NCBI GenBank assembly: GCA_963754955.1 | Contig: CAVWHY010000010.1 | Location: 15,233 to 79,232, forward strand | DNA: 64,000 bases | Reading direction: 5' to 3' | DNA from: an uncultured Acidobacteriota bacterium | GTDB taxonomy: Bacteria; Acidobacteriota; Vicinamibacteria; Vicinamibacterales; CAVVIG01 | Part shown: positions 13,517-37,621 of the stretch, in pieces | Position numbering within the stretch: position 1 is the stretch's first letter | Layout of the letters: every line of letters begins with the position of its first letter | Made by a program: the position numbers and the translations under genes | The notes under the pieces: generated by a model | Seen by the model: only the letters and a program-made list of their open reading frames with translations | Told to the model about the DNA's origin: nothing | Databases searched by the model: none

Positions 13517-13532
13517 CACTCGGCGACCACAC

Positions 13533-18188: not shown

Positions 18189-18217
18189 AGAATGCAGAAT
18201 GCAGAATGCAGAACGCA
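18162..18217. repeat. Heptamer tandem repeat, 8 x GAAYGNN (core GAATGCA)
   Basis: gaatgta gaacgtc gaatggc gaatgaa gaatgca gaatgca gaatgca gaacgca. Confidence 0.9.
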
Positions 18218-18227
18218 AGGACTCTCA

Positions 18228-18258
18228 ACCGCCGACTGCTGACTGTCGACTGCCGACT
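18228..18258. repeat. Heptamer tandem repeat, ACTGCCG family (4 units)
   Basis: accgccg actgctg actgtcg actgccg act, abutting the inferred stop of the minus-strand oxidoreductase. Confidence 0.85.
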
Positions 18259-19353: not shown

Positions 19354-20649
19354 CAGCTGCGGTATCCGATGGCGGCGTAGTCGAAATACGTGAACAGCAG
19401 ATTGTTGAGAATTGCCGCGTTCGCGTTGACCGTTCGCGCCATCTGGGCCACCGCCGCCGCGTGGTCCCCGCCTGCCGCCGCGATGGCCGGTACGTCCACG
19501 GGCTGCATCTTCAGGTGCTCGGGCACCGGCTGGCTGTACTGAAGCGTCACGTTGACGAAGCCGTTCGCCTGCAGCAGGTACTGCAGCGTCTCCGGGTGCA
19601 CGGGCTGCGCGTGCGTGACGTCGCGGATGTAGCTGCTGAAGAACGCCAGCCAGCACGCCGGGTTGATGGTCTCGACGACGATTGGCGCGCCGGCGCGCAG
19701 CTTCTGAAAGGCGACGGCGAGCAGCCGGGACAGGTACGGCGGCGTCAGGTGTTCCACGACCTGCGCGGCCATCAGCCCCCCGAGCGGAGCCGTCGGGCAG
19801 CGTGTCGAGGAAGACGAGCGCATCCGCGTGCACCGCGTCCAGACCGCGCTCGCAGGCGGTCGCGACCATTTCCCGGTTCGTGTCCACGCCGCGAGCCTTC
19901 ACGCCGGCAGTGTTGAGCAACGCGAGAAATTCACCGCGCCCGCAGCCGATATCGAGCACGTCGGCTGCTCCGGCAAACAGCGGCACATACGCCCGCAGCT
20001 TCTCGCGAATCTCATCGTCGGAGCCACGAAACCGATCTTCGAAGGCGACGTACTGGTAGTCCGGGAGGTTCGAAAGGTTCGAGGGGTTCGCGCGGGGCTG
20101 CGCACTGCCGGCCGCCGGCTGCGGACTGCCGACTGCCGACTGCCGACTGCCCACTGCCGACTGCGGAGTGTCGCCTGTCCGCGTGAGCATCTGCGTCGCG
20201 CGCTGGAGCACGGCGAACTGCGTCCGCATTTCCGGGAGCTGGCCGAGCAGTTCGTCGTGCCGGTCAAGCCGCGCTGCCGCCGTTGCGGCGAGCAGTCGAT
20301 CCTTGCTCTCGACGAACGCGGTGATCTTCTGGAGGAAGATGATGAGCGCGGTCTCGAAACGCGCGAAGGCGACTTCGCGTTCCTGGTCGGTGAGCGCGAC
20401 GATAGCGTCCACCATGCGGTTGTCGAAGGTGCGCTGCCGCGCGAACACGGGGGCCAGCCAGCGGTGGACGATACGGAGCCAGGGCTTGTGCGGGCCGGCC
20501 GGCGGCGGCAGCACCGCGTCGGGCCACGGCGGGACGGGGCGGGGCGTTTCGTCGACCGGGATGAACGCGTGGTCGACCGCCGTCAGCGCGTCGTTGTAGA
20601 CGCGCTCCGCTTCGTCGGCTTCCTGCCGCAATCGATCGCTGTCGTCCAT
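19353..20649 (-). CDS. Class I SAM methyltransferase with N-terminal helical/coiled-coil region, apparent frameshift near 19790
   Basis: [43 protein letters not shown]; pattern seen in glycan-cluster methyltransferases. Confidence 0.85.
20066..20166. repeat. Intragenic repeats: 3 x 9-mer (RGGTTCGNN) plus about 9-10 x heptamer ACTGCCG
   Basis: Translates on minus strand as [35 protein letters not shown]. Confidence 0.9.
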
Positions 20650-20657
20650 CCGCCGCG

Positions 20658-20663
20658 ATTGTA
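20658..20663 (-). promoter_or_regulatory. -10 box TACAAT 8 nt before ATG of methyltransferase (leaderless-type)
   Basis: Minus strand GGTACAATCGCGGCGGATG. Confidence 0.55.
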
Positions 20664-20681
20664 CCCCGGTCGCGGAATGGC

Positions 20682-20711
20682 TTGACGGTCCGCCGGCGCG
20701 CCGCCTACAAT
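20682..20711 (+). promoter_or_regulatory. Putative sigma70 promoter of gmd
   Basis: TTGACG-N18-TACAAT in the 75-nt divergent intergenic region. Confidence 0.6.
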
Positions 20712-20724
20712 TTGAAGATCCCCT

Positions 20725-21718
20725 ATGACGAAACGCGCATTGATTACCGGCATCACCGGCCAGGATGGATCCTATCTTGCCGAGCTTCTGCTCGACAAAG
20801 GGTACGACGTCGTACGGGATGGTGCGGCGGTCGAGCGCCCCGAATCTCTGGCGCATCCAGCACATCGCCCATCGCGTGGTGCTCAGGCCTGCCGACCTGC
20901 TCGATCAGTTGTCGCTGCTGCGGCTGGTCGACGAGGTCCGGCCCACGGAAATCTACAACCTGGCGGCGATGTCATTCGTGCCGGCGTCGTGGGATCAGCC
21001 GATGCTGACGGGCGAGTTCAACGCCCAGGGCGTGACCCGTCTGCTCGACGCGGTGCGGCAGGTCGACACCCGCATCCGCATCTACCAGGCGTCGTCCAGC
21101 GAGATGTTCGGCAAGGTGCGCCAGGTGCCGCAGACCGAGCAAACGCCGTTCTATCCGCGGAGCCCGTACGGCGTGTCGAAGGTATTCGCGCACTACATCA
21201 CCGTGAACTACCGCGAGAGCTACAACCTGTTCGCCGTCTCCGGGATGCTCTTCAACCACGAATCGCCCAGACGGGGTCTCGAGTTCGTGACGCGCAAAGT
21301 CAGCGACGGCGTCGCGCGCATCAAGCTGGGGCTCGCCGACAGCCTGCCGATCGGCAACGTCGACGCGCAGCGCGACTGGGGATTCGCCGGCGACTACGTT
21401 CGGGCGATGTGGATGATGCTGCAGCAGGACCACCCGGACGACTACGTGATTGCCACGGGGGTCAGCCACTCGGTCCGCGAGCTGATTGAAATCGCCTTTG
21501 CCCGCGTCGGGCTCGACTGGCAGAAGTATGTCCGCGTCGACCCGGCGCTGCTGCGTCCGGCCGAAGTCGATCATCTCCTGGGCGATCCTGCGAAGGCGCG
21601 CGCGGAGCTGGGCTGGGCGCCCAGTGTGGACTTCAAACAACTGATCGAGATGATGGTGGACGCCGATCTGGCGCTGCTCGGCTCGTCGCCGCTGGCCGCG
21701 CGCGTCCCGGCGCGGTAA
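20725..21718 (+). CDS. gmd: GDP-mannose 4,6-dehydratase, apparent frameshift near 20815
   Basis: [53 protein letters not shown]. Confidence 0.95.
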
Positions 21719-21743: not shown

Positions 21744-23062
21744 ATGAGCTCGAACGCGAATCATCAAGGTCTCCTCGATCGGATCCGCACGAAACGCGCA
21801 AAAATCGGGGTCATCGGGCTCGGCTACGTCGGCCTGCCGCTGGCCGTGGAGTTTGCGCGCCAGGGGTTCGACGTCTCCGGGTTCGACGTCGACGAGTTCA
21901 AGACTGGCGAGATCAACGCGGGCCGGAGTTACATCCCGGACGTCTCCTCGGCGGAGTTGAGCGAGGTCGTCAAGGCGGGCCGGTTGCGCGGCACAACGAA
22001 CATGGCCGACCTCGGCAGCATGGACGTCATCGACATCTGCGTGCCGACGCCGCTCCGGAAGACGAAGGATCCGGATCTGTCCTACGTCGTGCGCGCCGTC
22101 GAAGCCGTGGCCGCGACGCTCAAGAACGCGGCCAGCTGATCATTCTCGAGTCAACGACCTATCCCGGCACGACCGACGAAGTCGTCCAGCCGATGCTCGA
22201 GAGCCGCGGCGTCAAGGCGGACGTCGACTTCTTCCTCGCCTTCTCGCCCGAGCGCGTGGATCCGGGCAACCAGAAATTCAACACCCGCAACATTCCCAAG
22301 GTCGTGGGCGGTGTTGGCGCCGCGAGCACCGAGGCGGCCGCGCTGCTCTACGGATCGACCGTCGACACCGTCGTGCAGGTCAGCTCGACGCGAGTCGCCG
22401 AGATGGTGAAGCTGCTCGAGAACACTTTCCGCGCGGTCAACATCGGCATGGTCAACGAGCTCGCGCTGATGTGCCACAAGATGGACATCGACGTGTGGGA
22501 AGTGATCGATGCGGCGAAGACCAAGCCGTTCGGGTTCATGCCGTTCTACCCAGGTCCCGGGCTGGGCGGCCACTGCATTCCGATCGATCCGTTCTATCTC
22601 TCGTGGAAGGCGCGGCAGAACGGCTTCGAATGCCGGTTCATCGAGCTCGCGGGCAGCGTGAACTCGGCGATGCCCGATTTCGTGGTGGAGCGCGTGTCCG
22701 AGGCGCTGAACACGGCGCGCAAGTCGATCAACGGATCGCGCGTGCACCTGATCGGGGTGGCGTACAAGAAGGACGTCAACGACATGCGCGAGTCGCCGGC
22801 GCTCGACGTGCTCGAGCTGCTGTCGAAGCGCGGCGCGCGTTTGAGCTACTCGGATCCGTACGTGCCGGAGGTCAGGCACGGCGGCCACACGCTCTCGTCG
22901 ATCGATCTGGCCGCGGCGCTCGCGGCGGCGCCCGACTGCGCCGTGATCTGCACCGATCACGGGGTGTTCGACTACGACGCGCTGCTCAAGAGCGACACGT
23001 TGCTCGTCGACACGCGCAACGCGCTCAAGAACCATTCGTCGCCGCGAATCTTCCGTCTCTGA
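21744..23062 (+). CDS. Nucleotide-sugar 6-dehydrogenase (WbpA/WecC-like), apparent frameshift near 22128
   Basis: GLGYVGLP, CVPTP, ESTTYPGTT, FSPERVDPGN, KLLENTFR, GGHCIPIDP, D.RESP. Confidence 0.92.
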
Positions 23063-24100: not shown

Positions 24101-24115
24101 GTTCAGATTGTGAAC
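24101..24115. promoter_or_regulatory. Palindromic operator 2, GTTCA-N5-TGAAC
   Basis: GTTCAgattgTGAAC, 14 nt upstream of the -35 box. Confidence 0.8.
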
Positions 24116-24129
24116 GATGGCCTGACATC

Positions 24130-24158
24130 TTGACACCGATCGGGTGCTTCGCCATAAT
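24130..24158 (+). promoter_or_regulatory. Near-consensus sigma70 promoter for the SDR-transketolase-neu operon
   Basis: TTGACA (24130-24135), 17-nt spacer, CATAAT (24153-24158). Confidence 0.85.
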
Positions 24159-24164
24159 ATCGTC

Positions 24165-24179
24165 GTTCAAATTGTGAAC
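24165..24179. promoter_or_regulatory. Palindromic operator 3, GTTCA-N5-TGAAC, over predicted +1
   Basis: cGTTCAaattgTGAACg, 6 nt after the -10 box. Confidence 0.8.
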
Positions 24180-24290
24180 GCACGGGCCCATTTCGGGCCT
24201 TCTCGCGTGTCCTCCCTTGCCGTTGTTCGCTGGTCGCTTTATGCCGTTCATGGCGTGCGGCTGTGAGCGAGAGAGCGAGAGCCTGTCCCG

Positions 24291-25136
24291 TTGCTTTCTT
24301 CGTCCCCATTACTCGCTGATCTGTTCGGTCTCGACGGACACATCGCCATCGTCACTGGCGGAATGGGTCGCCTGGGCGGCCGTTACACCCAAGTCCTGGC
24401 CCAAGCAGGAGCGTCCGTCGCCGTTTTCGACCTGCCGCACCGGACCAATCCCATCGTCGAACAGGCCGCCGAGCGTCTCGCCGTCTCCACCCACCCGGTC
24501 GATGTCACCAATCGTGCTGCGGTCGACGCGGCCCTCCGCGACGTGGGGCAGCGTTTCGGGACAGCTACGATTCTCATCAACAACGCTGGCCTCGGCGCCT
24601 CGCCGTCGGATCCCTCTCTCGAGACGGGTCGCTTCGAGCAGTATCCGGAGTCCGCATGGGAGGCCATGCTCGGCTCCCACCTGAAGAGCGCGCTGGTCAC
24701 CTCGCAGTCGTTCATCGCCCAGTACCGGGCCGCGAGCACCGCTTCCACCCGGCCGGGCAGCATCATCAATGTGTCGTCCACATATGGTCTCGTGTCGCCG
24801 GACCAGTCCGTATACGAGTACCGGCGCCAGGACGGCGCGGAGTACTACAAGCCCGTCGGCTACAGCGTCGCTAAGTCGGGGGTGTTGAACTTTACCCGGT
24901 GGCTTGCCGAGTACTGCGCTCCGCTGGGGATCCGTGTGAACACGCTGGCTCCCGGAGGGGTGAGGGAAGCCGACCATGCGCCGGCATTCGTCGCAGAGTA
25001 CGAGAAGCGCACGCCACTTGGGCGCATGGCAGCGGTGGAGGACTTCGACGGCGCGTTACTGTTTCTCGCCTCACGCGCCTCCGCCTACATGACCGGCGCC
25101 ACGCTCGTCGTGGACGGCGGTTGGACGGCCAGGTAG
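24291..25136 (+). CDS. SDR family oxidoreductase (PtmA-like, nonulosonate-cluster type)
   Basis: TGGMGRLG, NNAG, SSTYG..PDQSVY, YSVAK catalytic motif, IRVNTLAPGG, VDGGW; start codon uncertain. Confidence 0.85.
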   Translation: MLSSSPLLADLFGLDGHIAIVTGGMGRLGGRYTQVLAQAGASVAVFDLPHRTNPIVEQAAERLAVSTHPVDVTNRAAVDAALRDVGQRFGTATILINNAGLGASPSDPSLETGRFEQYPESAWEAMLGSHLKSALVTSQSFIAQYRAASTASTRPGSIINVSSTYGLVSPDQSVYEYRRQDGAEYYKPVGYSVAKSGVLNFTRWLAEYCAPLGIRVNTLAPGGVREADHAPAFVAEYEKRTPLGRMAAVEDFDGALLFLASRASAYMTGATLVVDGGWTAR

Positions 25137-25184
25137 CAGTCCGCAGTCGTAGCGCGGTCCTTGAGACCCGCTTCCAGCATCAAG

Positions 25185-27164
25185 ATGGGCGAAAAAGATC
25201 ATTCCGATCGGCGGCTTGCTGGCGAGGGCGAGTTGGCCTACGTCCCGCAGGATGCCATCCGTCGCGTGCTTCGCGACAACGACGGCGATCCGATCGCACG
25301 CGCGGAGTTGCTCGCGGACCTGTGCCGCCTCAACACGTTGTACATGATCATGCAGGCCGGCTCCGGGCACATCGGGTCGAGTTTCAGTTCGATCGATCTG
25401 ATCAGCTGGCTGTGGACGTCCGTCCTCGCCGATGCCAACAGCGGTCGGCGCGGCGCCGACACGTATTTTTCCTCCAAGGGACACGACGCCCCGGCGCTTT
25501 ACTCGCTGCTCATCGCGCTCGACAAGCTGGACGCCTCGCTGCTGCACAAGCTCCGTCGGATCGACGGACTTCCGGGGCACCCGGACGTGGCTGTCCCCTT
25601 CATCGCCACCAACACTGGGTCGCTCGGTATGGGCATCTCGAAGGCGTATGGCATGGCGCGCGCACAGCGCCTGACTGCCGGAAGTGCAAGCGTCGGCCGC
25701 ATCGTGGTGATGACGGGTGACGGTGAACTTCAGGAGGGACAGATCTGGGAGTCCCTGCAGCCGACCGCGAACGAGCGGCTCGGCGAGATCATCGTCATCG
25801 TCGATCACAACAAGCTGCAGTCGGACGCGGCCGTCTCGGCCGTCAGCGACCTGGGTTCGCTCGAGGACAAGTTCGGCGCCTTCGGGTGGGAGGTGCAGCG
25901 CGCCGACGGCCATGATCTACGCGGCCTCCGAGCCGCGTTCGATCGGTTCGCGGCTGTTCCGGATCGCCCGAAGGTCCTCATCGCGGACACGATCAAAGGC
26001 AAGGGTGTGTCGTTTATGGAAGGCCTGGCGTGTGGTGACGCCACCTACCATTTTCACGCGGGTGCGCCGAGCCTTCCGAACTACCTGGCCGCCGTGGACG
26101 AGATTTCCCGGCGCGTGAACCGGCGCCTGACCTCGGTGAGCCAGCCCCCGATCGCGCTTCAGCACGTACCGCTCCCGGCCCGAATTGCGCCGTTGAAGCC
26201 CGAGCGTCTCGTCGTCGCTTACGGTGACGAACTGCTCGCGATCGCCCGGAGGCGCCCGGACGTCGTCGTGCTGGATGCCGACCTGCTGTCGGACTGCGGG
26301 ATCGAGGCGTTCAAGGCCGAGCTGCCCGAGCGTTTCATCGAATGCGGGATTGCCGAGCAGCACATGGTGTCGGCGGCCGGCGGGATGGCTCTTCGCGGCC
26401 TGCTCCCGGTCGTCCACTCCTTCGCCTGCTTTCTGTCCACACGAGCCAATGAGCACATCTACAACAACGCCACCGAGCGCAGGAAGATCATCTACACGGC
26501 TACGCTCGCCGGCGCGGTTCCCGGCGGACCGGGGCACTCGCACCAATCCGTTCGCGATATCTCGGCCATCGGCTCCGTCCCAGGACTCACGGCCATCGAG
26601 CCGTGCTGCGAGCGCGAGTCGCGGATGGCCATCAGGTGGGCCGTCGAGTGCAACGCCGCGAGCACGTATCTGCGTTTCGTGAACGTCCCGCTCGACCTTC
26701 CTTACTCGCTGCCTGATGCCTACACACTCGAGGCCGGACGAGGAGTGACGCTGCGGGAGGGGCGGGACGCGGCTATCGTGGGCTACGGTCCGGTCCTCAT
26801 GACCGGCGCCTGGCGAGCGGCCGACGAGTTGTCGCTGCAGGGCATCAGCACGGCCGTCATCAACCTACCCTGGCTGAACCGCATCGAGGACGGATGGGTG
26901 CGCGACACCCTGGGGCGTTTTCCCGTCATCGTCACGCTCGACAACCACTATGTGACGCTCGGCCAGGGCGTCATGGTTGCGGCGGCGCTCGCGAGAAACC
27001 GCGTGCGCGCCGACGTCCACTCGATCGGCCTTTCCGACATTCCCGCGTGCGGCAGCAACGCGGAGGTCCTCCAGCATCACGGTCTCGACGGCTCCTCCAT
27101 CGCGCACGCGGTTTACGCATGTATCCACACCAAGTCCTCCACTGGATCGACGACGCCGAAGTAG
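25185..27164 (+). CDS. Transketolase-like TPP enzyme (N- and C-terminal domains fused)
   Basis: GSGHIGSS, SKGH, LPGHP, GSLGMG, GDGELQEGQIWE..DHN TPP motif, ECGIAEQ, GHSHQ. Confidence 0.9.
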   Translation: MGEKDHSDRRLAGEGELAYVPQDAIRRVLRDNDGDPIARAELLADLCRLNTLYMIMQAGSGHIGSSFSSIDLISWLWTSVLADANSGRRGADTYFSSKGHDAPALYSLLIALDKLDASLLHKLRRIDGLPGHPDVAVPFIATNTGSLGMGISKAYGMARAQRLTAGSASVGRIVVMTGDGELQEGQIWESLQPTANERLGEIIVIVDHNKLQSDAAVSAVSDLGSLEDKFGAFGWEVQRADGHDLRGLRAAFDRFAAVPDRPKVLIADTIKGKGVSFMEGLACGDATYHFHAGAPSLPNYLAAVDEISRRVNRRLTSVSQPPIALQHVPLPARIAPLKPERLVVAYGDELLAIARRRPDVVVLDADLLSDCGIEAFKAELPERFIECGIAEQHMVSAAGGMALRGLLPVVHSFACFLSTRANEHIYNNATERRKIIYTATLAGAVPGGPGHSHQSVRDISAIGSVPGLTAIEPCCERESRMAIRWAVECNAASTYLRFVNVPLDLPYSLPDAYTLEAGRGVTLREGRDAAIVGYGPVLMTGAWRAADELSLQGISTAVINLPWLNRIEDGWVRDTLGRFPVIVTLDNHYVTLGQGVMVAAALARNRVRADVHSIGLSDIPACGSNAEVLQHHGLDGSSIAHAVYACIHTKSSTGSTTPK

Positions 27165-28585
27165 GGTCGTCGGATGCGAGTGCGGGCGCCTTCGAGAAAC
27201 GTCGGCCGTCGGATCACAGCGTCCTCGCGCAGGTCGCTCGCGGTGGGGCCGCCGAAGCGGCGCGTGCCGTGGACGTCGCCGTTGCTGCCGCGGAACGGTG
27301 GGGCCGGCTGCCAGCCCCCAAGCGGGGCGAGATCATCGGACGTGCTGCCGCGCTGTTGCGGGCGAACGAGCGAGAATTCGGCGAGTGCATCCAGGCCGAG
27401 ACCGGCAAGCCGTGGAAAAGCGCGGTCGGCGAAGTGACGTCTTCCGCCGATCTCGGCGTCTTCATGGCGGGAGAAGGCAGCCGCTTCTACGGAAAGACGA
27501 TGGCGAGTCCTATTCCGAACCGCGCCGTGCGAACCGTGCGCGCGCCGATCGGCGTGTGCGGCGCCGTCATGCCGTTCAACAGCCCACTGGCCGGCGTCGC
27601 CTGGAAGGTGTTCCCTGCGCTGCTGTGCGGCAATGCGGTCGTGGCGAAATCACACGAGCTCACGCCGTACACGGCCATCGCATTCGGCAAGCTGTTGCGG
27701 GAAGCTGGTCTGCCGCGCGGGGTTTATTCGGCCGTTCAAGGTCTTGGTCCCGAAGTCGGGATGCCGCTCGTGCGCGACGAACGCGTCGGCATCGTCAGCT
27801 TCACCGGATCCGTCGCGACCGGCAAGCTGATTCAGAAGGCCGTCAGTGAACGCGCGGTTCTCGCGAAGGTCTGCCTCGAACTCGGCGGCAAGAACCCCCT
27901 CGTGGTTTGCGACGACGCCGACGTTGCGCTCGCCGCCGAGCACGCGGTGGCGTCTGCCTTCGTGGACGCGGGGCAGCGGTGCGCCTCGGGCAGCCGCTTG
28001 ATTGTGTTCCGCGACGTCTACAAGGAGTTCAGTGAAGCCGTCGTCAGGCACACCGAGGCGATGAAGATCGGATCGGGCCCCGACGACGATTGCGGTCCGG
28101 TCATCTCCAAACAGAGCCTCGACCGCCTCCTGGGAACCGTGGAGAGCGCCGTCGCGCGCGGCGCCCGCCTCCTTACGGGTGGCACGGCTGTCGCCGCGCG
28201 GGCCCCCGGTTACTACATGGCCCCGACCGTGCTGGAGAACGTCGCGCTCGATGACGAGCTGATGCAACAGGAGCAGTTCGGCCCGATCACCTGCCTTTAC
28301 CGCGTGAACAACTTCGACGAGGCGGTCGCCGCCGCGAACGCGACGACCTTCGGTCTCACTGGGGCGATTCACACCGCGAACGGCAACCGCATCGAGGAGT
28401 TCATCGCGCGGTACCGCGGCGGATTGGTGTCCGTCAACGGTCCGACATACGGAGCGGGCCCGCACATGCCGTTCGGCGGCGTGAAGAATTCCGGCAACGG
28501 CTTTCGCGAGCCGGGCACAGAAGCGCTCGACGTGTACTGCGAATGGAAGACGGTCGTGGTGAATCACGACCCCACGCGCGTATGA
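27119..28585 (+). CDS. Aldehyde dehydrogenase family protein
   Basis: PFNSP, FTGS, LELGGKNP, GQRCASG, EQFGP, PFGGVKNSG. Confidence 0.92.
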   Translation: MYPHQVLHWIDDAEVGSSDASAGAFEKRRPSDHSVLAQVARGGAAEAARAVDVAVAAAERWGRLPAPKRGEIIGRAAALLRANEREFGECIQAETGKPWKSAVGEVTSSADLGVFMAGEGSRFYGKTMASPIPNRAVRTVRAPIGVCGAVMPFNSPLAGVAWKVFPALLCGNAVVAKSHELTPYTAIAFGKLLREAGLPRGVYSAVQGLGPEVGMPLVRDERVGIVSFTGSVATGKLIQKAVSERAVLAKVCLELGGKNPLVVCDDADVALAAEHAVASAFVDAGQRCASGSRLIVFRDVYKEFSEAVVRHTEAMKIGSGPDDDCGPVISKQSLDRLLGTVESAVARGARLLTGGTAVAARAPGYYMAPTVLENVALDDELMQQEQFGPITCLYRVNNFDEAVAAANATTFGLTGAIHTANGNRIEEFIARYRGGLVSVNGPTYGAGPHMPFGGVKNSGNGFREPGTEALDVYCEWKTVVVNHDPTRV

Positions 28586-29800
28586 GCAGTGGGTTTTCGC
28601 AAAAAGGACAGACGGGGAAGCGGCGGATCTGTTTTCCACTGACAAGCCGCGCCTACTACGGGCGCAGTCAGCTGCTGCTCAGGAAGCTGCGCGACTCATC
28701 CCAATCTCGAGCTCGAGTTAATGCTCGGCGGTTCGATCCTGCTGGACAAATACAGCCGCCACATCGCCGAGGACGTCGAGGCCGGCGGGTTCACCGTAGC
28801 GGCGTCGCTGTTCAACGTCATCGAGGGCGGCAACCACGTGGCGATGGCGAAAACGGCGTGCCTGACGGCGCTCGAGTTCACCAACAGCCTGTACACGCTC
28901 GATCCCGACATTGTCGTCATCAGTGGCGACCGGTTCGAGCAGCTCGCGATTGCCATGGCGGCGGCGTACCTGAACAAGACGATCGCTCACATCGAGGGCG
29001 GAGATGTCAGCGGCAGCATCGACGAAAGTGTGCGGCACGCCATTACCAAGCTTGCGCACATCCATTTCGTGACCAACGCGGATGCTCACCGCCGCGTGCT
29101 CGCCATGGGTGAGGATCCGGAGTACGTGTTCAATGCGGGGTCGCTCGACGTCGAGTGGGCCGCCGCGGTGAATACGGATATTTCAACCGAGACGCTGAAT
29201 AGGTTCGGCGTCGGCAGCCAGGTAGACGTTGCACGCCCGTTTCTGATGGTGATCCAGCATCCGGTGACGACCGAACCGGACAATCGACGCCACCTCGAAG
29301 CCACGTTCCGCGCGCTGGCCGACCTCGACATCCCGGTGGTCTGGTTCTGGCCGAACCCCGACGCCGGAACCGGCGAGATGGCCGAAACGCTCAGGCACTT
29401 CCGGGAGCACCACGAGGCGGCGATCGAGCGGGTGCGGTTCATCACCGATCTGCCGGCGGATCAGTTCATCGCCTTGCTGAAGCGCGCCTCGTGTCTCGTG
29501 GGCAACTCGTCGGCCGGCATCAAGGAGTGCTCGTATCTTGGAACGCCCGTTGTGGACATCGGGGTGCGTCAATCGGGACGTCTGAGCACCGAGAACGTAA
29601 TGCGCGTGGGATACGACGCCGGTGACATCAGAGCTGCCGTTCGAACGCAGCTCGGTCACGGTCCTTACATGCGGTCCAACGTCTATCATCGTCCGGGCGC
29701 GAGCCAGTCCATCGTCGACGTGCTGGCGAGTGTTCAGCTCTATACACAGAAGCGCTTCCACGAAACCGCCATAGACGCCGTGAGCGTGAAATCGACATGA
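28582..29800 (+). CDS. neuC: UDP-N-acetylglucosamine 2-epimerase (hydrolysing), apparent frameshift near 28697
   Basis: GDRFE, HIEGGDVSGSIDESVRHAITKLAH, QHPVTTE, PNPDAG, GNSSAG. Confidence 0.9.
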
Positions 29801-30825
29801 CTGCACATCTGCCCATCGGGAGTCGCGACATCGGTCCGGGCTCACCGTGCCTCGTCATCGCCGAGGCTGGCATCAACCACAACGGCGACGCAGGGCTGGC
29901 GGCGGAACTGGTGGATCGCGCGGCGGAAGCCGGCGCCGACGCGATCAAATTCCAGACGCACTTCCCCGAACACGAGATGCTGCGCGGCGGGGAGACCGCC
30001 GCCTACGTTGGCGAGTCGCTGTTCGATCTGCTCACGCGGACGGCGCTGTCCCGGGAGGCGCACTACGAGCTGGCGGCGCGTGCGGCTCGCAGGGGGATCA
30101 TGTTCCTCTCAACGCCGTTTTCGCGTGAGGCGGCCGACTTTCTCGAGACGCTGGGCGTGCCGGCGTTCAAGTGCGGATCGGGGGAGTTGACAAACCTGCC
30201 GTTGCTGCAGCACATCGCGCGAAAAGGCAGGCCGATGCTCGTGTCTACGGGCATGTCGACGGCCGACGAGATCGATGCGAGCGTCCGCGTGCTGGAGGCG
30301 GCGGGCGCCCAGTACGCGCTGATGCACTGCACGTCCACCTACCCGACTCCATTTCCTCACGTTCAGCTTGGATGCATCGAGTGGCTTCGGGACAAGTACG
30401 GGGTCCCCGTCGGCTTTTCCGACCACACACTGGGCAACGTGATGGCGCTCGCCGCGGTGGCCAGCGGCGCGAATATTTTCGAGAAGCACTTCACGTCGTC
30501 CCGCTCGCTACCCGGACCCGATCAGGAGGGTTCGATGGAACCAGGCGAACTCGCTGAGCTGGTCAGAGGCATCCGGGCGATCGAACAGGCACGCGGCGCA
30601 ACGAAGATGATTCAGCCGGGCGAACAAGAGGTTCGCGACATGGCGCACCACAGCGTCGTGTCCATTCGGAACATCGCGGCAGGCGCCACGATTGCCGCAG
30701 ACGACGTCTGGACGAAACGTCCTGGAACCGGAATTCCTGCCCGGCAGCTGGTTGACGTGATCGGCCGAACTGCAAAGCGGGCCATCCCCAAGGACCGTCT
30801 CATCGCGTGGGACCAGCTGTCCTGA
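29797..30825 (+). CDS. neuB: N-acetylneuraminate (nonulosonate) synthase with C-terminal SAF domain
   Basis: IAEAGINHNGD, IKFQT, STPF, HCTSTYP, GFSDHT, EKHFT, KRPGTGI. Confidence 0.93.
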   Translation: MTAHLPIGSRDIGPGSPCLVIAEAGINHNGDAGLAAELVDRAAEAGADAIKFQTHFPEHEMLRGGETAAYVGESLFDLLTRTALSREAHYELAARAARRGIMFLSTPFSREAADFLETLGVPAFKCGSGELTNLPLLQHIARKGRPMLVSTGMSTADEIDASVRVLEAAGAQYALMHCTSTYPTPFPHVQLGCIEWLRDKYGVPVGFSDHTLGNVMALAAVASGANIFEKHFTSSRSLPGPDQEGSMEPGELAELVRGIRAIEQARGATKMIQPGEQEVRDMAHHSVVSIRNIAAGATIAADDVWTKRPGTGIPARQLVDVIGRTAKRAIPKDRLIAWDQLS

Positions 30826-30832
30826 ACGCCAT

Positions 30833-31555
30833 TTGAACGTACTGGGATTGGTAACCGCGCGCGGTGGCTCGAAAGGGCTGCCGGGCAAGAACCTCCGGCC
30901 GCTCGCCGGTAAGCCGCTCATGGCCTACACGATCGAGGCTGCGAGGGCGTCCGGCTCGTTCGATCGAGTCGTGCTCTCCACCGATGATGCCGGCATCGCG
31001 GCGGCGGGTCGTGCCTGCGGCTGCGACGTGCCGTTCATCCGGCCGCCGGAGCTCGCGCGCGACGAGACGCCTCACCTCCCCGTCGTCCAGCACGCCGTTC
31101 GATGGCTCGAGGAGCGCGAGGGCTATAGGCCGGACGCTGTGATGATTCTTCAACCTACCTCGCCGCTGCGGCGGCCCGAAGACATTCGGGAGGCGGTGGC
31201 TCTGCTCGAGCGTTCGGGCGCTGATTCAGTTGTCGGCGTATGTCCCGTGCCGGATCACGACCACCCGATGCGCACGGTCTCGATCGATGCGTCGGGCCTG
31301 GCCACCCTGTTTGTGACGGGCGAGCCGCTTGGCAGCCGAATCAACCGGCGTCAGGACATGCCGCAGGCGTGGACAATGAACGGCGCCATCTATCTTCTTC
31401 GCGCCTCATTGCTGTCTGCCGCGGAGCCGAGCCTTTACGGCGCCCGCACGGCGGCGTACGTCATGTCGGCCGCGTTCGGAATCAGTATCGATTCGCTCGC
31501 TGACTGGGCCGCTGCGGAACGGGCTCTGGAAGAACTCGTGACTAAACGTGGCTAG
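30833..31555 (+). CDS. neuA: Acylneuraminate cytidylyltransferase
   Basis: ARGGSKGLPGKN, STDD, RPPELARD, LQPTSPLR, RRQD, NGAIY. Confidence 0.92.
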   Translation: MNVLGLVTARGGSKGLPGKNLRPLAGKPLMAYTIEAARASGSFDRVVLSTDDAGIAAAGRACGCDVPFIRPPELARDETPHLPVVQHAVRWLEEREGYRPDAVMILQPTSPLRRPEDIREAVALLERSGADSVVGVCPVPDHDHPMRTVSIDASGLATLFVTGEPLGSRINRRQDMPQAWTMNGAIYLLRASLLSAAEPSLYGARTAAYVMSAAFGISIDSLADWAAAERALEELVTKRG

Positions 31556-32213
31556 GCCGGGTATGGATATCGAGGCTCATCGCGACCTCAAGCTGCTTGA
31601 GGCGGTCGAACGGGACTCGCGCGTCACGCAACGCAGTCTCGCCAGCACGCTCGGTATCGCTCTCGGACTGACCAACGTGTATCTGAAACGGCTCGTGCGC
31701 AAGGGGTACATCAAGTGCGTGAACGTGCAGTCGAACCGCATTTCCTACCTCATTACACCGCGCGGCATCGCCGAGAAGGCACGGCTCACGTACGAGTTCA
31801 TGGACTATTCGCTGCATCTGTACGGTGAAGTTCGGCAGCATCTCCGGATGGTGCTGCAGGAGTGCGCGGCGGCGGGCCGCCGGGTCGCGATCTGCGGACG
31901 CGGCGAGGCCGCGGAGCTCGCGTACCTCTCACTGCGGGAGTTCGGTCTGGAGCCCGTCGCGATCTTCGACGACGACAACCAGCTCGAGTTTCTTGGGATG
32001 CCTGTGCGCCCCATCGCAGAGCATCACGATGTGGCGTACGATCTGATGATCGTCGCCACCCTTGAGCGATCGGGGAATCAGGTCGCCGCGCTCATCCGGT
32101 CCGGCGTCACGACAGACAAGTTGTTCCCGCTCCGCAAGGCTGGTCCGACCCGGCACACGTCTGCGACCGATCCGGTGCGAGCGGGCAACGGTCGTGTCGG
32201 CTCGGGCGGCTGA
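31548..32213 (+). CDS. EPS-associated MarR-type winged-helix regulator with C-terminal Rossmann-like domain (start may be ATG 31563)
   Basis: TQRSLASTLGIALGLTNVYLKRLVRKGYIK..YLITPRGIAEKARLT matches the EPS-associated MarR signature; C-term VAICGRGEAAELAY. Confidence 0.85.
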   Translation: MARPGMDIEAHRDLKLLEAVERDSRVTQRSLASTLGIALGLTNVYLKRLVRKGYIKCVNVQSNRISYLITPRGIAEKARLTYEFMDYSLHLYGEVRQHLRMVLQECAAAGRRVAICGRGEAAELAYLSLREFGLEPVAIFDDDNQLEFLGMPVRPIAEHHDVAYDLMIVATLERSGNQVAALIRSGVTTDKLFPLRKAGPTRHTSATDPVRAGNGRVGSGG

Positions 32214-32219
32214 GGTTTC

Positions 32220-33191
32220 ATGGCACTGAAACGCAAGCGCATCTGCATCACCGGCGGGGCCGGATTCATCGGTTCGTATCTCGTCCAGCGCTTACTCGAT
32301 GACAACGAAGTCGTTGTCTACGACAACCTGCATCGCAACGCCATCCAGTTCGCGGCCGTCGACGGGCACCCGCACCTGCACTTCATCAAGGGCGACGTGA
32401 CGCACTACGAGGCGACCCGCAAGGCTGTCGAGGGCTGTCACGTTGTCATCCACTGCGCTGCGATCGCGGGCGTGTACTCCGTCGATCGCAACGCCGTGAC
32501 GACGATGGAAGTGAACATGCTCGGAACGCACCAGGTCGTCAAGGCCGCCCTGGACGTGGGAGTCGAGCGGTTCGTCGAGTTCTCGACAAGCGAGGTTTAC
32601 GGGCCGTTCATTCACAAGGGCAGGGAAGACGACGTGACGACGATCGGGCCGATTGGCGAGAGCCGGTGGGTGTACGCTGCCAGCAAGCTCGCGTCGGAAC
32701 ACCTGTCGTACTCGCACTACAAGGAGGACGGCCTGCCGCTGGCGATCGTCCGCCCGTTCAACGTCTACGGGCCGAGGCAGGTCGGCGACGGTGCCATCAG
32801 GGGGATGATCCTCCAGGCCCTCAGCAACACGCCGATCACCCTCTACAACGACGGGACCCAGATTCGGGCGTGGTGCTACGTCGACGATTTCGTCGATGGC
32901 GTCCTGCGCTGCACGGAGCGGCCAGAGGCTATCGGCCACGTGTTCAATCTCGGCAACCCCCAGGGCACCATCACGAACTTCGAGCTCGCCAACATGATCA
33001 TCCGGCTGACGCAGTCGAAGTCGGACATCGTCTTCAAGCCGCACCCGGGACCGGAAGTCGATCTGCGAGTGCCGTCCATCGACAAGGCGGCGACTCTCCT
33101 CGGGTTCAAGCCGGCCATCTCGCTCGAGGCGGGGATTTCGCGGACGATTCCCTGGTACGCCGAGCACTTGTCGCAAGTGAGCGCCCAGTGA
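32220..33191 (+). CDS. NAD-dependent epimerase/dehydratase
   Basis: TGGAGFIG, STSEVYG, YAASK, RPFNVYGP. Confidence 0.9.
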   Translation: MALKRKRICITGGAGFIGSYLVQRLLDDNEVVVYDNLHRNAIQFAAVDGHPHLHFIKGDVTHYEATRKAVEGCHVVIHCAAIAGVYSVDRNAVTTMEVNMLGTHQVVKAALDVGVERFVEFSTSEVYGPFIHKGREDDVTTIGPIGESRWVYAASKLASEHLSYSHYKEDGLPLAIVRPFNVYGPRQVGDGAIRGMILQALSNTPITLYNDGTQIRAWCYVDDFVDGVLRCTERPEAIGHVFNLGNPQGTITNFELANMIIRLTQSKSDIVFKPHPGPEVDLRVPSIDKAATLLGFKPAISLEAGISRTIPWYAEHLSQVSAQ

Positions 33192-33204
33192 CCTCAGACA
33201 GCCC

Positions 33205-33225
33205 TACTGCCGACTGCTCACTGCT
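33205..33225. repeat. Degenerate heptamer repeat (3 units, ACTGCYN)
   Basis: (ct)actgccg actgctc actgct immediately before ATG 33226. Confidence 0.6.
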
Positions 33226-34167
33226 ATGCGCGTAATCGTCACCGGCGCTTCCGGGTTCATCGGCCGCAACCTGCTGCTGCGCGCGCCGCGGGACTGGCAG
33301 ATCGTGGCCGTTTACCGCAATGCCGGCGGGTTCGCCGCGTTCCTTGCGCGTCATCGGTTGATGCATGTGCGCGCCGTTCGGTGTGACCTCGCCAGTGCGG
33401 AGGACGTCGCCCTACTGGCCCGCGACGCTGGGCCGGTGGACGCATGCGTCTATCTGGCCGCCAACGGCGATCCCGCGCTGTCGTCGGAGCGTCCCGCGTG
33501 GGACCTGCAGCTCAACACGCTGGCCCTCGTGACGTTCCTCGAGCGCGTCCGCGTCGGTCATCTCGTTTACGTCTCGTCAGGCGCGGTCTACGACGGGCTG
33601 CAGGGACCGGTGTCTCCAGGAACAACAGTGGCCCCGAGGCTGCCTTACGCGATTTCGAAGCTGGCATCCGAATACTACCTGCGTGGGTTTTCCGAACGCC
33701 GGCATACCGTCGGCAGCTTCGTCAACGTGCGCTTCTTCGGCGCCTACGGGCCGTACGAGCCCGAGCGCAAGATCACGACGCGCTGGATGCGCGGCATGAT
33801 GCAAGGCCGGCGCGAGTTCACGCTTCGCGGCAACGGCGAAAACCTCATCGACTTCATGTACGTCGACGACGCGGTGGATGGATTCCTGGCGTTGACATCG
33901 TCCTCGGGATTCAGCGGGACCATCGATTTCGCATCCGGCGCGCCACTCAGCGTCAACGCGGTGGCGCAGACAATGGGCCGCGTGATGGGCATCGATGTCA
34001 CGCTGCTCCACGAAGGTCACACCGAGGAATACATTCAGTTTCACACCGTCGATCGCACCATGCGGGATCGTTTCGGGTTCGAAGCCCGCACCCCGTTCGA
34101 AACAGGCGTGCGCCGGTTGCATCAGTTTCTGCTCGAGGAGCGAGATGGCGCCAGCCAGCCCGCGTGA
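33226..34167 (+). CDS. NAD-dependent epimerase/dehydratase
   Basis: TGASGFIG, SSGAVY, YAISK, DFMYVDD. Confidence 0.88.
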   Translation: MRVIVTGASGFIGRNLLLRAPRDWQIVAVYRNAGGFAAFLARHRLMHVRAVRCDLASAEDVALLARDAGPVDACVYLAANGDPALSSERPAWDLQLNTLALVTFLERVRVGHLVYVSSGAVYDGLQGPVSPGTTVAPRLPYAISKLASEYYLRGFSERRHTVGSFVNVRFFGAYGPYEPERKITTRWMRGMMQGRREFTLRGNGENLIDFMYVDDAVDGFLALTSSSGFSGTIDFASGAPLSVNAVAQTMGRVMGIDVTLLHEGHTEEYIQFHTVDRTMRDRFGFEARTPFETGVRRLHQFLLEERDGASQPA

Positions 34168-34783
34168 GCTCGCCGAGCGCGAGCTCCACGAGTATGTCGC
34201 CGGCGTCGAAGGCCATGACTCCCAGACCGTCGGCGTCGTCGGGTACTTCTACCGCATGTACCGCGCGGAGGTGCTCGCTCGTGTCGGCGAACTGCGCGGG
34301 CGCGACGTCCTCGAAATCGGCTGCGGCGAGGGGATGATGTTCGACGGCACGCCCCTGAGCCCGGTGCAGATGGATGTGTCGATGACGCGTGTCGCCCGTG
34401 CCTCGGGCAGGTGCCGGCTGCTGCTGTGCGCCGACGGCTATCAGTTGCCGTTCGCGGCCGAGTCGTTTGCTGCGGTGCTGCTGATCGCGGTCCTCGAGCA
34501 CACCCGCGAGCCTTGGCGGCTGCTCGCCGAAGCGCGGCGCGTGCTGAAGCCGGGCGGCCGGGTCGTCATGGTGGTGCCGAACGACGTGACGATGAGCGCC
34601 GGTCGGCTGCTGCTCGGCAAGTTTCCCATCCGCTATCCCGATCACCTCACCTTCACGACGCCCGGCCGGATGCGGACCTGGCTCGCCGATGGTTTCCGGA
34701 TTCGGGAAGCATTTCATCTGCCGTTTCGCATGCTGCCGTTCGCCGCGAACCTCTACCACTGCGTCGTCGCCGAGCGGGCCTGA
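34145..34783 (+). CDS. Class I SAM methyltransferase
   Basis: VLEIGCGEG, LPF, VLEH, RRVLKPGG. Confidence 0.85.
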   Translation: MAPASPRELAERELHEYVAGVEGHDSQTVGVVGYFYRMYRAEVLARVGELRGRDVLEIGCGEGMMFDGTPLSPVQMDVSMTRVARASGRCRLLLCADGYQLPFAAESFAAVLLIAVLEHTREPWRLLAEARRVLKPGGRVVMVVPNDVTMSAGRLLLGKFPIRYPDHLTFTTPGRMRTWLADGFRIREAFHLPFRMLPFAANLYHCVVAERA

Positions 34784-34788
34784 TCGCA

Positions 34789-36222
34789 TTGCCGCAGCCG
34801 CATGTGGTTGTCCTCGGAACCGGGCCTGCCGGCATGTCGGCCGCGTGGCGTTTAGCCCAGCTGGGCTGCCGCGTGACCGCTCTCGAGAAAGACACGGCCG
34901 TCGGCGGAATGGGCAAAACGATTGGTGTCGGCAAGTACGCCGTCGACTACGGCCCTCACACGTTCCATATCCGCGAAACCGAAGAGAGCCGCCGGATTCA
35001 CGAGGCCATCCGCCCCCTGTTTGGCGAGGACCCACTCGTGCTGACGCGAGGGACGCGCGTGCTGCTTCGCGGCAAGGAGTACGTGTATCCACTCGAGATG
35101 CTGCAGGTGCTGACGGGCGTCAGCCCCATGCTCTCGGCGCGCATCGTGTACGACTACCTGACGGCGAGCATCAAGTCGCTGATCATGCCGCCGCGGAACG
35201 AGCATTCGTTCGAGGAGTGGGGCGTGCGGAATCTCGGACGCACGCTCTACGATCTGTGCTTCGGCATCTACTCCGAGCGGGTCTGGGGTCTGCCGACGTC
35301 GCAGATTTCCTCGAAGCAGGCGCAGCGCGTTGCCAAGCTCAACCTGAAGAACGTCGTGCTCAGGTCGTTTGGAATCAAGGCGGATCCCGCGACCTACTTC
35401 ATGAAGTACATGTACCCGCGCAAGGGCATCAGCGTGCTGTTCGAGAACATGGCCGCCGAGTTCCGCGGCACGGGCAACTGCCTGCATCTCGAGTCACCCG
35501 TGGTGCGCCTCGAGCGTGACGGCGAGCGGATCGCGCGAGTTGTGTATACCCACGGCGGCCACGAGCGCGCGATCGAGTGTGATGGAGTCGTCTCCACGCT
35601 GCCGCTTCCGCAACTTGTCGGCATGATCTCGCCGTCTCTGCCGTCGAGCGTCGCGGAACATGCAAAGCGCCTGCGCTACCGCAGTCTGAAGCTGATCTAC
35701 ATCGCGCTGAAGCGGCCGCAGCTCACGGACTACCACTGGGTGTACCTGCTGGATTCGCAGTTCCGCGTGAACCGGATGTCGGAGCAGAAGAACGTCAGCC
35801 CGGACATGGTGCCGGCGGATCGCACCATCTTGTGTGTCGAGCTGTCATGCTGGCGCGACGAGCCGATGTGGAAGGCCAGCGACGAAGAAATCTACCGTGT
35901 CGCGCTTGGCGACGTCATGCAGATGGGCTACGGCGTGACGGAAGACGAGGTCGAGGACTACCACGTTACTGACATTCCGACCGCCTATCCGGTCTACGGG
36001 CTCGATTTCGAACGCGACCTCATCCCGGTGCTCGAGGGCGTCCACGCCGTACCGAATCTATTGACGCTCGGCCGGCACGGTCTGTTTCTCAATAACAGCA
36101 TGGATGACAATGTTCTGCTCGGGATGAAGATCGCGAGCCACATCGCGGAGAGCGGCTTCGACAGTCAGGCCTGGTTGTCAGAGATGCTGGCCTTCATGAA
36201 CCTGCGGTTCGACGGCAAATAG
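34789..36222 (+). CDS. FAD-dependent oxidoreductase (protoporphyrinogen oxidase / UDP-galactopyranose mutase-like, glycan-cluster type)
   Basis: VLGTGPAG, VGG, DYGPHTF, YPRKG, AYPVY, GRHGLF..NSMD; start uncertain. Confidence 0.8.
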   Translation: MPQPHVVVLGTGPAGMSAAWRLAQLGCRVTALEKDTAVGGMGKTIGVGKYAVDYGPHTFHIRETEESRRIHEAIRPLFGEDPLVLTRGTRVLLRGKEYVYPLEMLQVLTGVSPMLSARIVYDYLTASIKSLIMPPRNEHSFEEWGVRNLGRTLYDLCFGIYSERVWGLPTSQISSKQAQRVAKLNLKNVVLRSFGIKADPATYFMKYMYPRKGISVLFENMAAEFRGTGNCLHLESPVVRLERDGERIARVVYTHGGHERAIECDGVVSTLPLPQLVGMISPSLPSSVAEHAKRLRYRSLKLIYIALKRPQLTDYHWVYLLDSQFRVNRMSEQKNVSPDMVPADRTILCVELSCWRDEPMWKASDEEIYRVALGDVMQMGYGVTEDEVEDYHVTDIPTAYPVYGLDFERDLIPVLEGVHAVPNLLTLGRHGLFLNNSMDDNVLLGMKIASHIAESGFDSQAWLSEMLAFMNLRFDGK

Positions 36223-37602: not shown

Positions 37603-37610
37603 GGCGCGTG

Positions 37611-37616
37611 ATTGTA
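37611..37616 (-). promoter_or_regulatory. -10 box TACAAT 8 nt before ATG (leaderless-type)
   Basis: Minus strand GGTACAATCACGCGCCATG. Confidence 0.55.
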
Positions 37617-37621
37617 CCGTG

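Follow-up and report, generated by a model that had tools for sequence, protein, structure and literature searches.

Which sugar does a bacterium make when a transketolase stands in front of genes for the synthesis of sialic-acid-type sugars? Ulosonic acids such as sialic, legionaminic (Leg) and pseudaminic (Pse) acid, Kdo and Kdn shape bacterial surfaces and their recognition by other organisms. To our knowledge, the established pathways to these acids use no thiamine diphosphate (ThDP) enzyme. The window analysed here is a stretch of 64,000 nt from an uncultured Acidobacteriota bacterium (contig CAVWHY010000010.1 of assembly GCA_963754955.1). At positions 24291-31555, it holds six co-directional genes on the + strand. 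Pfam and NCBIfam assigned them to a short-chain dehydrogenase/reductase (SDR), a fused transketolase (TK), an aldehyde dehydrogenase (ALDH), NeuC, NeuB and NeuA. The host genome comprises 6.2 Mb on 13 contigs and is 87.6% complete. The window has a G+C content of 64-69%, and its closest relatives were found in the Acidobacteriota, order Vicinamibacterales. One large polysaccharide locus extends from approximately 20.7 kb to the end of the window. It includes GMD, UGDH, methyltransferases, GT-C and GT4 transferases, a carbamoyltransferase and an ABC-2 exporter. The six genes were annotated as follows.

24291..25136, + strand: classical SDR, 281 aa; Pfam adh_short_C2, E 7e-40
25185..27164, + strand (open reading frame, ORF, opens at 25161): fused three-domain transketolase-family ThDP enzyme, 659 aa; Transketolase_N, Transket_pyr and Transketolase_C
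27119..28585, + strand: ALDH, 488 aa; Pfam Aldedh PF00171, 479 bits, E 1e-143
28582..29800, + strand: NeuC-type hydrolysing UDP-GlcNAc 2-epimerase; TIGR03568, 290.9 bits (cut-off 235.9), from the ORF 28721-29800
29797..30825, + strand: NeuB-family ulosonate synthase (condensation with phosphoenolpyruvate, PEP), 342 aa; Pfam NeuB and SAF
30833..31555, + strand: NeuA-family cytidine monophosphate (CMP)-ulosonate synthetase (cytidylyltransferase), 240 aa; Pfam CTP_transf_3 over cut-off

The block is best explained as a biosynthetic operon for a CMP-activated ulosonic acid that is modified in its tail and destined for a surface polysaccharide. A pathway that combines SDR, TK and ALDH with neu genes is not yet described. 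A full-text search, with most subscription journals outside its coverage, returned no relevant paper on a transketolase in nonulosonic or sialic acid clusters or on nonulosonic acids in Acidobacteria.

The genes are closely packed. SDR and TK are separated by a 48-nt gap, TK and ALDH overlap by 46 nt, ALDH and NeuC as well as NeuC and NeuB share ATGA overlaps, and a 7-nt gap lies between NeuB and NeuA. The original prediction, made from the letters of the window, had placed six genes with overlapping or near-abutting junctions behind one promoter. The genes and the junctions, from the 46-nt overlap to the 48-nt gap, were found as described; for the single promoter, the evidence is one sigma-70-like match. 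The end of the block at 31555 was set too early, as the co-directional run goes on with a MarR_EPS regulator, two genes of the epimerase/dehydratase fold and a FAD oxidoreductase. That the block contains no LegB/LegC or PseB/PseC pair was confirmed with Pfam and NCBIfam, which also detected no Leg/Pse 4,6-dehydratase, aminotransferase or N-acetyltransferase within 24291-31555. The nearest ORF of the DegT family lies 9 kb upstream, beyond unrelated genes. Epi1, encoded downstream of the block, reached 148 bits with the LegB model, which has a cut-off of 475.

Gene neighbourhoods of the fused transketolase

The TK search yielded at least 80 related loci, and all locus counts refer to the loci listed. 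Homologues of the partner genes were identified by tblastn (E ≤ 1e-10, coverage ≥ 50%) at distances of ≤10 kb, using the window genes and the genes of locus L057 as queries.

Complete fused TK (n = 49): SDR 37, ALDH 33, NeuB family 28, NeuA family 35, at least one partner 43
TK cut by a contig end or broken (n = 9): SDR 9, ALDH 4, NeuB family 6, NeuA family 8, at least one partner 9
Split TK of N and C subunits, 29-45% identity (n = 22): SDR 0, ALDH 0, NeuB 0, NeuA 0, any partner 0

The partner counts are lower bounds because many loci end at contig ends. With at least one partner at 43 of the 49 complete TK genes and at none of the 22 split ones, the proposed conservation of the trio beside neu-type genes was borne out, and according to the synteny counts the grouping goes beyond chance. 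The comparison supports the trio as a dedicated and conserved companion of NeuB/NeuA-type genes, not a housekeeping or catabolic neighbour. Judged by record labels, the module occurs in Acidobacteriota, Gemmatimonadota, Alpha- and Gammaproteobacteria, Myxococcota, Chloroflexota, Actinomycetota, Planctomycetota and Rokubacteria. It consists of five or six genes, and Ciceribacter sichuanensis S101 (locus L033) is at least one cultured isolate that apparently carries it.

Two layouts were distinguished. Close relatives of the window showed the order (GMD-UGDH-[NeuA])-SDR-TK-ALDH-NeuC-(NeuB)-NeuA-MarR-Epi1-Epi2-FAD oxidoreductase. This layout comprised 12 listed loci with a TK identity of ≥70%, and NeuC was present in 8 and NeuB in only 3 of them. 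The second layout, NeuB'-(HAD)-SDR-ALDH-NeuA'-TK, lacks NeuC and was detected in Gemmatimonadales, Alpha- and Gammaproteobacteria, Polyangiaceae, Chloroflexota, Actinomycetes, Phycisphaerales, Rokubacteria and other Vicinamibacterales. This form without NeuC, commoner in other phyla, had been missed originally. NeuB' and NeuA' of the second layout were just 30-38% identical to the window proteins. The NeuB' subfamily scored 290 bits with the NeuB model and 229 bits with the PseI model, both under cut-off.

A phosphatase of the KdsC/Kdn-9-P-phosphatase family (HAD) was present in 12 of the 58 listed module loci. KpsS/C-like Capsule_synth proteins were encoded in 9 and members of TIGR04396, 'surface carbohydrate biosynthesis', in 6 of these loci, often 3' of the TK gene. 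Together, these genes fit a ulosonate that is made, activated and transferred. The window itself contained no HAD, Capsule_synth or TIGR04396 gene. In the sister group L017-L020 and L025, Pfam assigned the genes in the gaps to methyltransferases, the enolase superfamily and ketopantoate-reductase-like proteins, none of which recurred.

Two further proteins were observed next to the module. Directly upstream of NeuB', the Vicinamibacterales form encodes a protein of approximately 315 aa without a Pfam or NCBIfam match (L041:4505-5452), with homologues of 43-71% identity in L026, L027, L059, L063 and L102-L106. It may be a further pathway member. In L025, a 514-aa fusion of NeuB with a cupin/lyxose-isomerase-like C-terminus (12782-14326) adjoins the module TK and NeuA'.

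One point set beforehand as a refuting test was whether the TK is a housekeeping or catabolic enzyme. Among 60 other sampled genomes of the order, only 7 had a TK match at 50-59% identity, and 46 encoded a different TK of about 630 aa with 29-35% identity. A canonical tkt over the TIGR00232 cut-off was present in 8 of 61 genomes. Genomes with a module TK also carried a TK of another kind, and all six module-type TKs retrieved from the order sit in the NeuB'-SDR-ALDH-NeuA'-TK layout. In a FastTree phylogeny of 59 sequences, of which only the topology was considered, the module TKs grouped in a single clade on a long branch, and three housekeeping TKs of the order fell outside it. Within this clade, the TK group of the window was monophyletic. 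The window's own assembly contained no housekeeping or canonical TK, only the module TK and weak DXS/E1-like matches, which may be an assembly gap at 87.6% completeness. The lack of a second TK shows nothing here because 12% of the marker genes are missing. By its distribution and phylogenetic position, the TK is classified as an accessory, non-housekeeping paralogue.

The transketolase pocket and the other five enzymes

The TK most likely starts at the ATG at 25185 (MGEKDH, as in relatives). Its domains PF00456, PF02779 and PF02780 all scored over cut-off, and the only further Pfam match was DXP_synthase_N. Neither of the curated families was reached, with 363 bits for NF004559 (cut-off 488) and 143 bits for TIGR00232 (cut-off 682). 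The ESM Atlas returned generic transketolase clusters only. The best solved relative was human transketolase 4kxu (E 3e-54, approximately 30% identity), and the alignment to it was used to map H37, H77, H110, D155, N185, H258, R318, S345, E366, H416, D424, Q428 and R474.

The catalytic core is kept. The window TK has the GDG...N motif for ThDP and metal binding (equivalents of D155 and N185). H37, H77, R101, H110, H258 and E366 were present in the window TK and in 48-49 of the 49 listed complete relatives; the position of Q428 is His in the same proteins, as in yeast (H481) and E. coli. The conserved His residues presumably hold the C1 hydroxyl and the carbonyl of the donor.

The phosphate pocket is replaced. 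R318, S345, H416 and R474 of the human enzyme hold the substrate phosphate, as we take from the yeast and human transketolase literature, and the window TK has V, D, L and N at these four positions. Among the 49 listed relatives, R318 is exchanged for V, I or another residue, S345 for D in 49, H416 for L or Y in 49 and R474 for S, N or I in 49. D424, which we take to bind the C2 hydroxyl of the acceptor, corresponding to the C4 hydroxyl of the donor, is Pro in all 49. The replacement residues D378 and P457 are invariant in module TKs. Split TKs, which entered the alignment as fragments from high-scoring segment pairs, retained R318 in 11 of 11 aligned sequences, S345 in 14 of 17, H416 in 20 of 22, D424 in 20 of 22 and R474 in 22 of 22. 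All five positions were also retained in the three scored housekeeping TKs of the order; five housekeeping-type regions had been retrieved and three aligned with the window TK, and the other two and a canonical tkt (L100) were unscored. A total of 29 positions were near-invariant in the module clade and different in split TKs, including an exchange of E for R at position 465.

With the His residues kept and the phosphate residues and the Asp lost, the enzyme should still handle a ketol, though one that lacks a phosphate and the usual hydroxyl group two carbons along. Of the features expected from a sugar-phosphate transketolase, the domains and the cofactor and catalytic residues are present; the enzyme lacks the phosphate pocket and the acceptor Asp and stays below the score of the curated families. 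It therefore probably uses transketolase chemistry but is not to be filed as EC 2.2.1.1.

The SDR has the motifs of a classical SDR, namely the Gly-rich cofactor motif TGGMGRLG, NNAG at residue 97 and YSVAK at residue 191. Its best NCBIfam models were PRK09186, gluconate 5-dehydrogenase, mannonate oxidoreductase and KduD, all under cut-off. Behind the label 'PtmA-like' given to it originally stands a match to NF006619 that remained below threshold (138 bits, cut-off 255); gluconate 5-dehydrogenase scored about equally with 135.5 bits. For the ALDH, the start was refined to the ATG at 27119, where the tblastn match to relatives begins. The motifs with the catalytic Asn, Glu and Cys are in place (PFNSPL, ELGGKNP and GQRCASGSR). 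Its top NCBIfam models were 2,5-dioxovalerate dehydrogenase (362 bits, cut-off 750) and alpha-ketoglutarate-semialdehyde dehydrogenase (349 bits, cut-off 770), and no equivalog cut-off was reached. Although far from these thresholds, models for semialdehydes of 2-keto acids agree with the role proposed below. NeuB scored 382 bits with TIGR03569, just below the cut-off of 399.65, and 263 bits with the PseI model. The sole NCBIfam model near NeuA was TIGR03584 (PseF), with 150 bits and a cut-off of 205.7.

A candidate pathway and its alternatives

From the family assignments, NeuC would convert UDP-GlcNAc to ManNAc and NeuB would join ManNAc and PEP to give a Neu5Ac-type 3-deoxy-2-ulosonic acid of nine carbons. 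In its pyranose form, such an acid carries an exocyclic glycerol tail of C7, C8 and C9. The absence of Leg/Pse dehydratase and aminotransferase genes from the block implies that this tail should carry the C9 hydroxyl needed for a ketol. The SDR could oxidise the penultimate hydroxyl at C8, giving the terminal ketol HOCH2-C(=O)-CH(OH)-, the donor motif of transketolases. The TK would then cleave the C7-C8 bond via ThDP, remove the two-carbon ketol and leave an aldehyde at C7, which the ALDH would oxidise to a carboxylate. The predicted product is 5-acetamido-3,5-dideoxy-hept-2-ulosaric acid (C9H13NO8, 263.064 Da). Neither ring closure to a pyranose nor activation by a NeuA-type enzyme would be blocked in it, and NeuA is expected to attach CMP to this final acid. 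As C6 bears the ring oxygen and no hydroxyl, the scheme would explain why the Asp corresponding to D424 became dispensable. In the second layout, NeuB' and the KdsC-like phosphatase may supply the starting acid from a sugar phosphate, and the trio would yield a 3-deoxy-heptulosaric acid (C7H10O8), either the known sugar Dha or one of its isomers.

In this scheme, the three enzymes act one after the other, each a single time, on the portion of the molecule that both starting-acid routes share. The originally proposed order, with a keto sugar made by the SDR, C2 transfer by the ThDP enzyme and acid formation by the ALDH, uses the trio most economically. The product had been left as branched, extended or truncated. 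Truncation is favoured because the TK has lost its sugar-phosphate site, and branching or extension appears less probable. We consider it very probable that the genes form a dedicated module for a CMP-activated ulosonic acid that differs from Neu5Ac, Leg, Pse, Kdo and Kdn. The full mechanism, with oxidation at C8 by the SDR, removal of C2 by the TK and oxidation by the ALDH to a CMP-activated heptulosaric acid, is proposed tentatively and falls a little short of being probable. Bolder and rather doubtful is the proposal that the trio is the enzymatic counterpart of the periodate trimming of sialic acids and the first known route to CMP-activated 3-deoxy-hept-2-ulosaric (Dha-type) acids, with a re-tooled TK acting on a non-phosphorylated ketol in at least eight phyla.

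Other uses of the same genes were weighed against this scheme. The truncation might take place as proposed while the ALDH mainly oxidises the released glycolaldehyde, or another enzyme might process the aldehyde, so that the sugar would be a C7 aldehyde, alcohol or amine. Nine of the 46 SDR-bearing listed loci have kept SDR, NeuA' and TK without an ALDH, and the ALDH reaches no equivalog cut-off, both of which suit this view. We nevertheless regard it as unlikely, as the ALDH is present in 33 of the 49 listed complete-TK loci, mostly between SDR and NeuA', its gene overlaps the TK gene in the window, and a TK that passes its ketol to an acceptor frees no glycolaldehyde. Transketolase chemistry is reversible, and a lost phosphate pocket also suits a non-phosphorylated donor such as hydroxypyruvate. 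The SDR could make an aldehyde or keto group to which the TK adds a C2 ketol, giving a C11 or branched acid. Such an extension would give the ALDH nothing to do or set it in competition for the aldehyde, secondary alcohols are the usual substrates of classical SDRs of this type, and the precedent for branch formation, YerE, presumably belongs to another ThDP family. It is judged less likely again.

Instead of trimming a finished acid, the trio might produce glycolate, glycerate or another small acid, or else an unusual aldose, as an acyl substituent of the ulosonate or a substrate for the NeuB-type enzyme. TK-like enzymes reportedly supply glycolyl units in some antibiotic pathways, and methyltransferases are often nearby. 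However, no conserved acyl-CoA ligase, carrier protein or acyltransferase accompanied the module in the scanned loci. The trio occurs with both NeuC plus NeuB and NeuB' plus phosphatase, and tailoring of a shared part fits this better than supply of a precursor. The phosphatase beside NeuB' also suggests that the NeuB' substrate is phosphorylated, yet the phosphate site of the TK is lost. Precursor supply is improbable and ranks below the chain extension. A chance neighbourhood, in which a housekeeping or catabolic TK merely lies beside neu genes, would agree with the lack of another strong TK in the window's assembly (87.6% complete) and with the few relatives whose TKs stand alone. Synteny over many phyla, with none of the 22 listed split-TK loci showing it, an orthologue limited to 7 of the 60 sampled genomes, which have another TK too, and the loss of all four phosphate-binding positions make chance extremely improbable.

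Several observations weigh against the proposed truncation pathway, whose chemistry is deduced from gene content and residues. The TK needs a C2 acceptor, and none is evident. The residue roles are taken over from work on the yeast and human enzymes, and the family matches of SDR and ALDH are too unspecific to fix a substrate. The ALDH was absent within the flanks in the nine loci mentioned above, including L056 and L058 of Chloroflexota and L044 of Rokubacteria; therefore, the acid-forming step is not universal or the ALDH has another role, for example glycolaldehyde removal. In the close relatives L008, L009, L013 and L015, NeuB is encoded outside the cluster, elsewhere in the genome. Six of the 49 listed fused TKs had none of the four partners nearby. 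One of them lies on a 1.8-kb contig, L022 is located among leucine-biosynthesis genes and L034 and L036 have Capsule_synth only; NeuB-family genes were found elsewhere in 5 of 5 searched genomes with a partnerless TK. Taxon labels may be blurred by binning errors because nearly all records are metagenome-assembled genomes.

The reading frame of neuC is also a point against it. The frame is broken near 28693, and the first ~38 codons (28582 to ~28695) are out of frame with the ORF 28721-29800. The original prediction had overlooked this break in the assembled sequence. When joined, the frames match the N-termini of NeuC in relatives. Short-read contigs (Logan) from four runs of soil, root and rhizosphere samples were aligned to the region. 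At 20811, the break in GMD, they had one base fewer in 4 of 4 runs, and at 22127-22130, the break in UGDH, two bases fewer in 3 of 4 runs. Position 28693 was covered in only 1 of 4 runs, where one contig of a 96.6%-identical relative (327 nt, 11 mismatches) had one base fewer. As the frameshifts at 20811 and 22127-22130 also differ from the short-read contigs, the break in neuC is likely an assembly indel; position 28693 itself rests on this single contig of a relative.

Further frame breaks were observed. Probable indels at 20811, 22127-22130, 23067 and 28693 of the window split the N-terminus of GMD, UGDH (21744-22139 and 22193-23062) and neuC. A sodium:dicarboxylate symporter gene (three ORFs) and probably a DegT gene, upstream at 14916-18169, are also split.

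Surroundings of the operon and known systems

The features flanking the six genes were annotated as follows.

24102..24180, + strand: control region, a sigma-70-like match flanked by two copies of TTCAnATTGTGAACG
31548..32213, + strand: MarR-family regulator associated with exopolysaccharide (EPS); HTH_24; TIGR04176 69 bits, below the cut-off of 88
32220-33191 and 33226-34167, + strand: extended-SDR epimerase/dehydratase genes (Pfam, NCBIfam)
34411-36222, + strand: FAD amine-oxidase-like gene (Pfam, NCBIfam)

The sigma-70-like match, TTGACA-17-CATAAT at 24130-24158, agrees at 11 of 12 positions and lies in the 225-nt gap upstream of the SDR gene. It was the better of two such sites in a 16-kb region, where 1.8 were obtained in shuffles, so there is no excess over chance. 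Two matches of TTCAnATTGTGAACG, at 24102-24116 and 24166-24180, compare with 0.00 expected from 100 shuffles; no copy was detected in related loci. As a guess, the pair could serve as an operator, perhaps bound by the MarR_EPS-like regulator encoded at 31548-32213. Two RNA runs contained a fraction of 0.06 of the sequence words sampled. The gene of this regulator overlaps neuA by 8 nt and is located 3' of NeuA in L008-L015, with 70-76% identity. The downstream block 32220..36222 is syntenic in L008, L009, L012, L013 and L015 and probably serves another sugar of the same polysaccharide.

Several other features of the region were recorded. The stretch 32220-37863, conserved with the operon in the closest relatives, encodes a UXS/ArnA-like dehydratase, a second epimerase-fold protein, a PRK07208-type FAD oxidoreductase and, on the opposite strand, a GT-C protein (PMT_2), and resembles lipid-linked pentose-modification systems. 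At 18028-20865 on the - strand, where the polysaccharide locus borders on its surroundings, lies an ORF of 945 aa with a methyltransferase-like region (residues ~286-358) and, at its C-terminus, an FAD-dependent DAO oxidoreductase domain (243 bits); such a fusion is unusual. Two large ORFs in the polysaccharide locus, 42777-44915 (712 aa) and 59748-61121 (457 aa), have no Pfam match and are candidates for a transferase or polymerase of the modified acid.

Among known systems, the pathway to CMP-Neu5Ac has the same NeuC, NeuB and NeuA families, the same gene order and translational coupling, with the window NeuC over and NeuB just under the cut-off. The window differs by three extra enzymes ahead of these genes, by a NeuA that matches only the PseF model, below cut-off, and by the broken neuC frame. 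The Bacteroides-type Kdn pathway (Kdn-9-P synthase, phosphatase and CMP-Kdn synthetase) shares a NeuB-family synthase, a small HAD protein and a cytidylyltransferase with the second layout of the module. The latter adds SDR, ALDH and TK, its NeuB' remains below both the NeuB and the PseI cut-off, and the window has no HAD gene.

Human TKT (4kxu) and the split TK of Carboxydothermus (6yak/6yaj) have the three-domain fold, the GDG...N motif, the cofactor Glu and the catalytic His in common with the module TK, which is only about 30% identical, has the four phosphate positions and the acceptor Asp replaced and misses the NCBIfam cut-offs. YerE, to which the ThDP enzyme had been compared originally, is a match in cofactor only. 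It belongs to what we take to be a family of acetolactate-synthase-like ThDP flavoenzymes, and the window enzyme has the three-domain fold of transketolases, so the analogy does not extend to the fold. The sulfo-TK route of sulfoglycolysis reportedly resembles the proposed trio in a TK that acts on a non-phosphate sugar, in shortening by a C2 unit and in a dehydrogenase for the resulting aldehyde. It is said to be catabolic, with split TKs, a sulfonate sugar and no link to CMP activation. Gluconate 5-dehydrogenase and KduD oxidise the penultimate hydroxyl of sugar acids, as proposed here, and are among the top families for the SDRs of the window and the module. The scores were only 122-138 bits at cut-offs of 279-339, and many other SDR families scored nearly as high.

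The retention of the catalytic core and the loss of the pocket in a TK lineage tied to NeuB/NeuA-type genes across many phyla suggest a sugar not yet described and, for a textbook enzyme family, a reaction that is new. Should the product be a heptulosaric acid, the module would open genetic access to this class of sugars for the first time. Literature on heptulosaric and ulosaric acids consisted almost only of plant and algal papers, plus one on lipopolysaccharide (LPS) of Acinetobacter. Dha is described from the LPS core of Acinetobacter haemolyticus (PMC4019464) and from plant rhamnogalacturonan II (RG-II) and green algae, where both its biosynthesis and its activated form are listed as unknown (PMC3355719, PMC12168206). 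If the proposed truncation is true, the module could give a lead as to where the Dha of Acinetobacter LPS, green algae and plant RG-II comes from. Dha is a seven-carbon 2-keto-3-deoxy diacid and belongs to the same class as the proposed product; by our derivation, a truncated Kdn differs from Dha in its configuration at C6.

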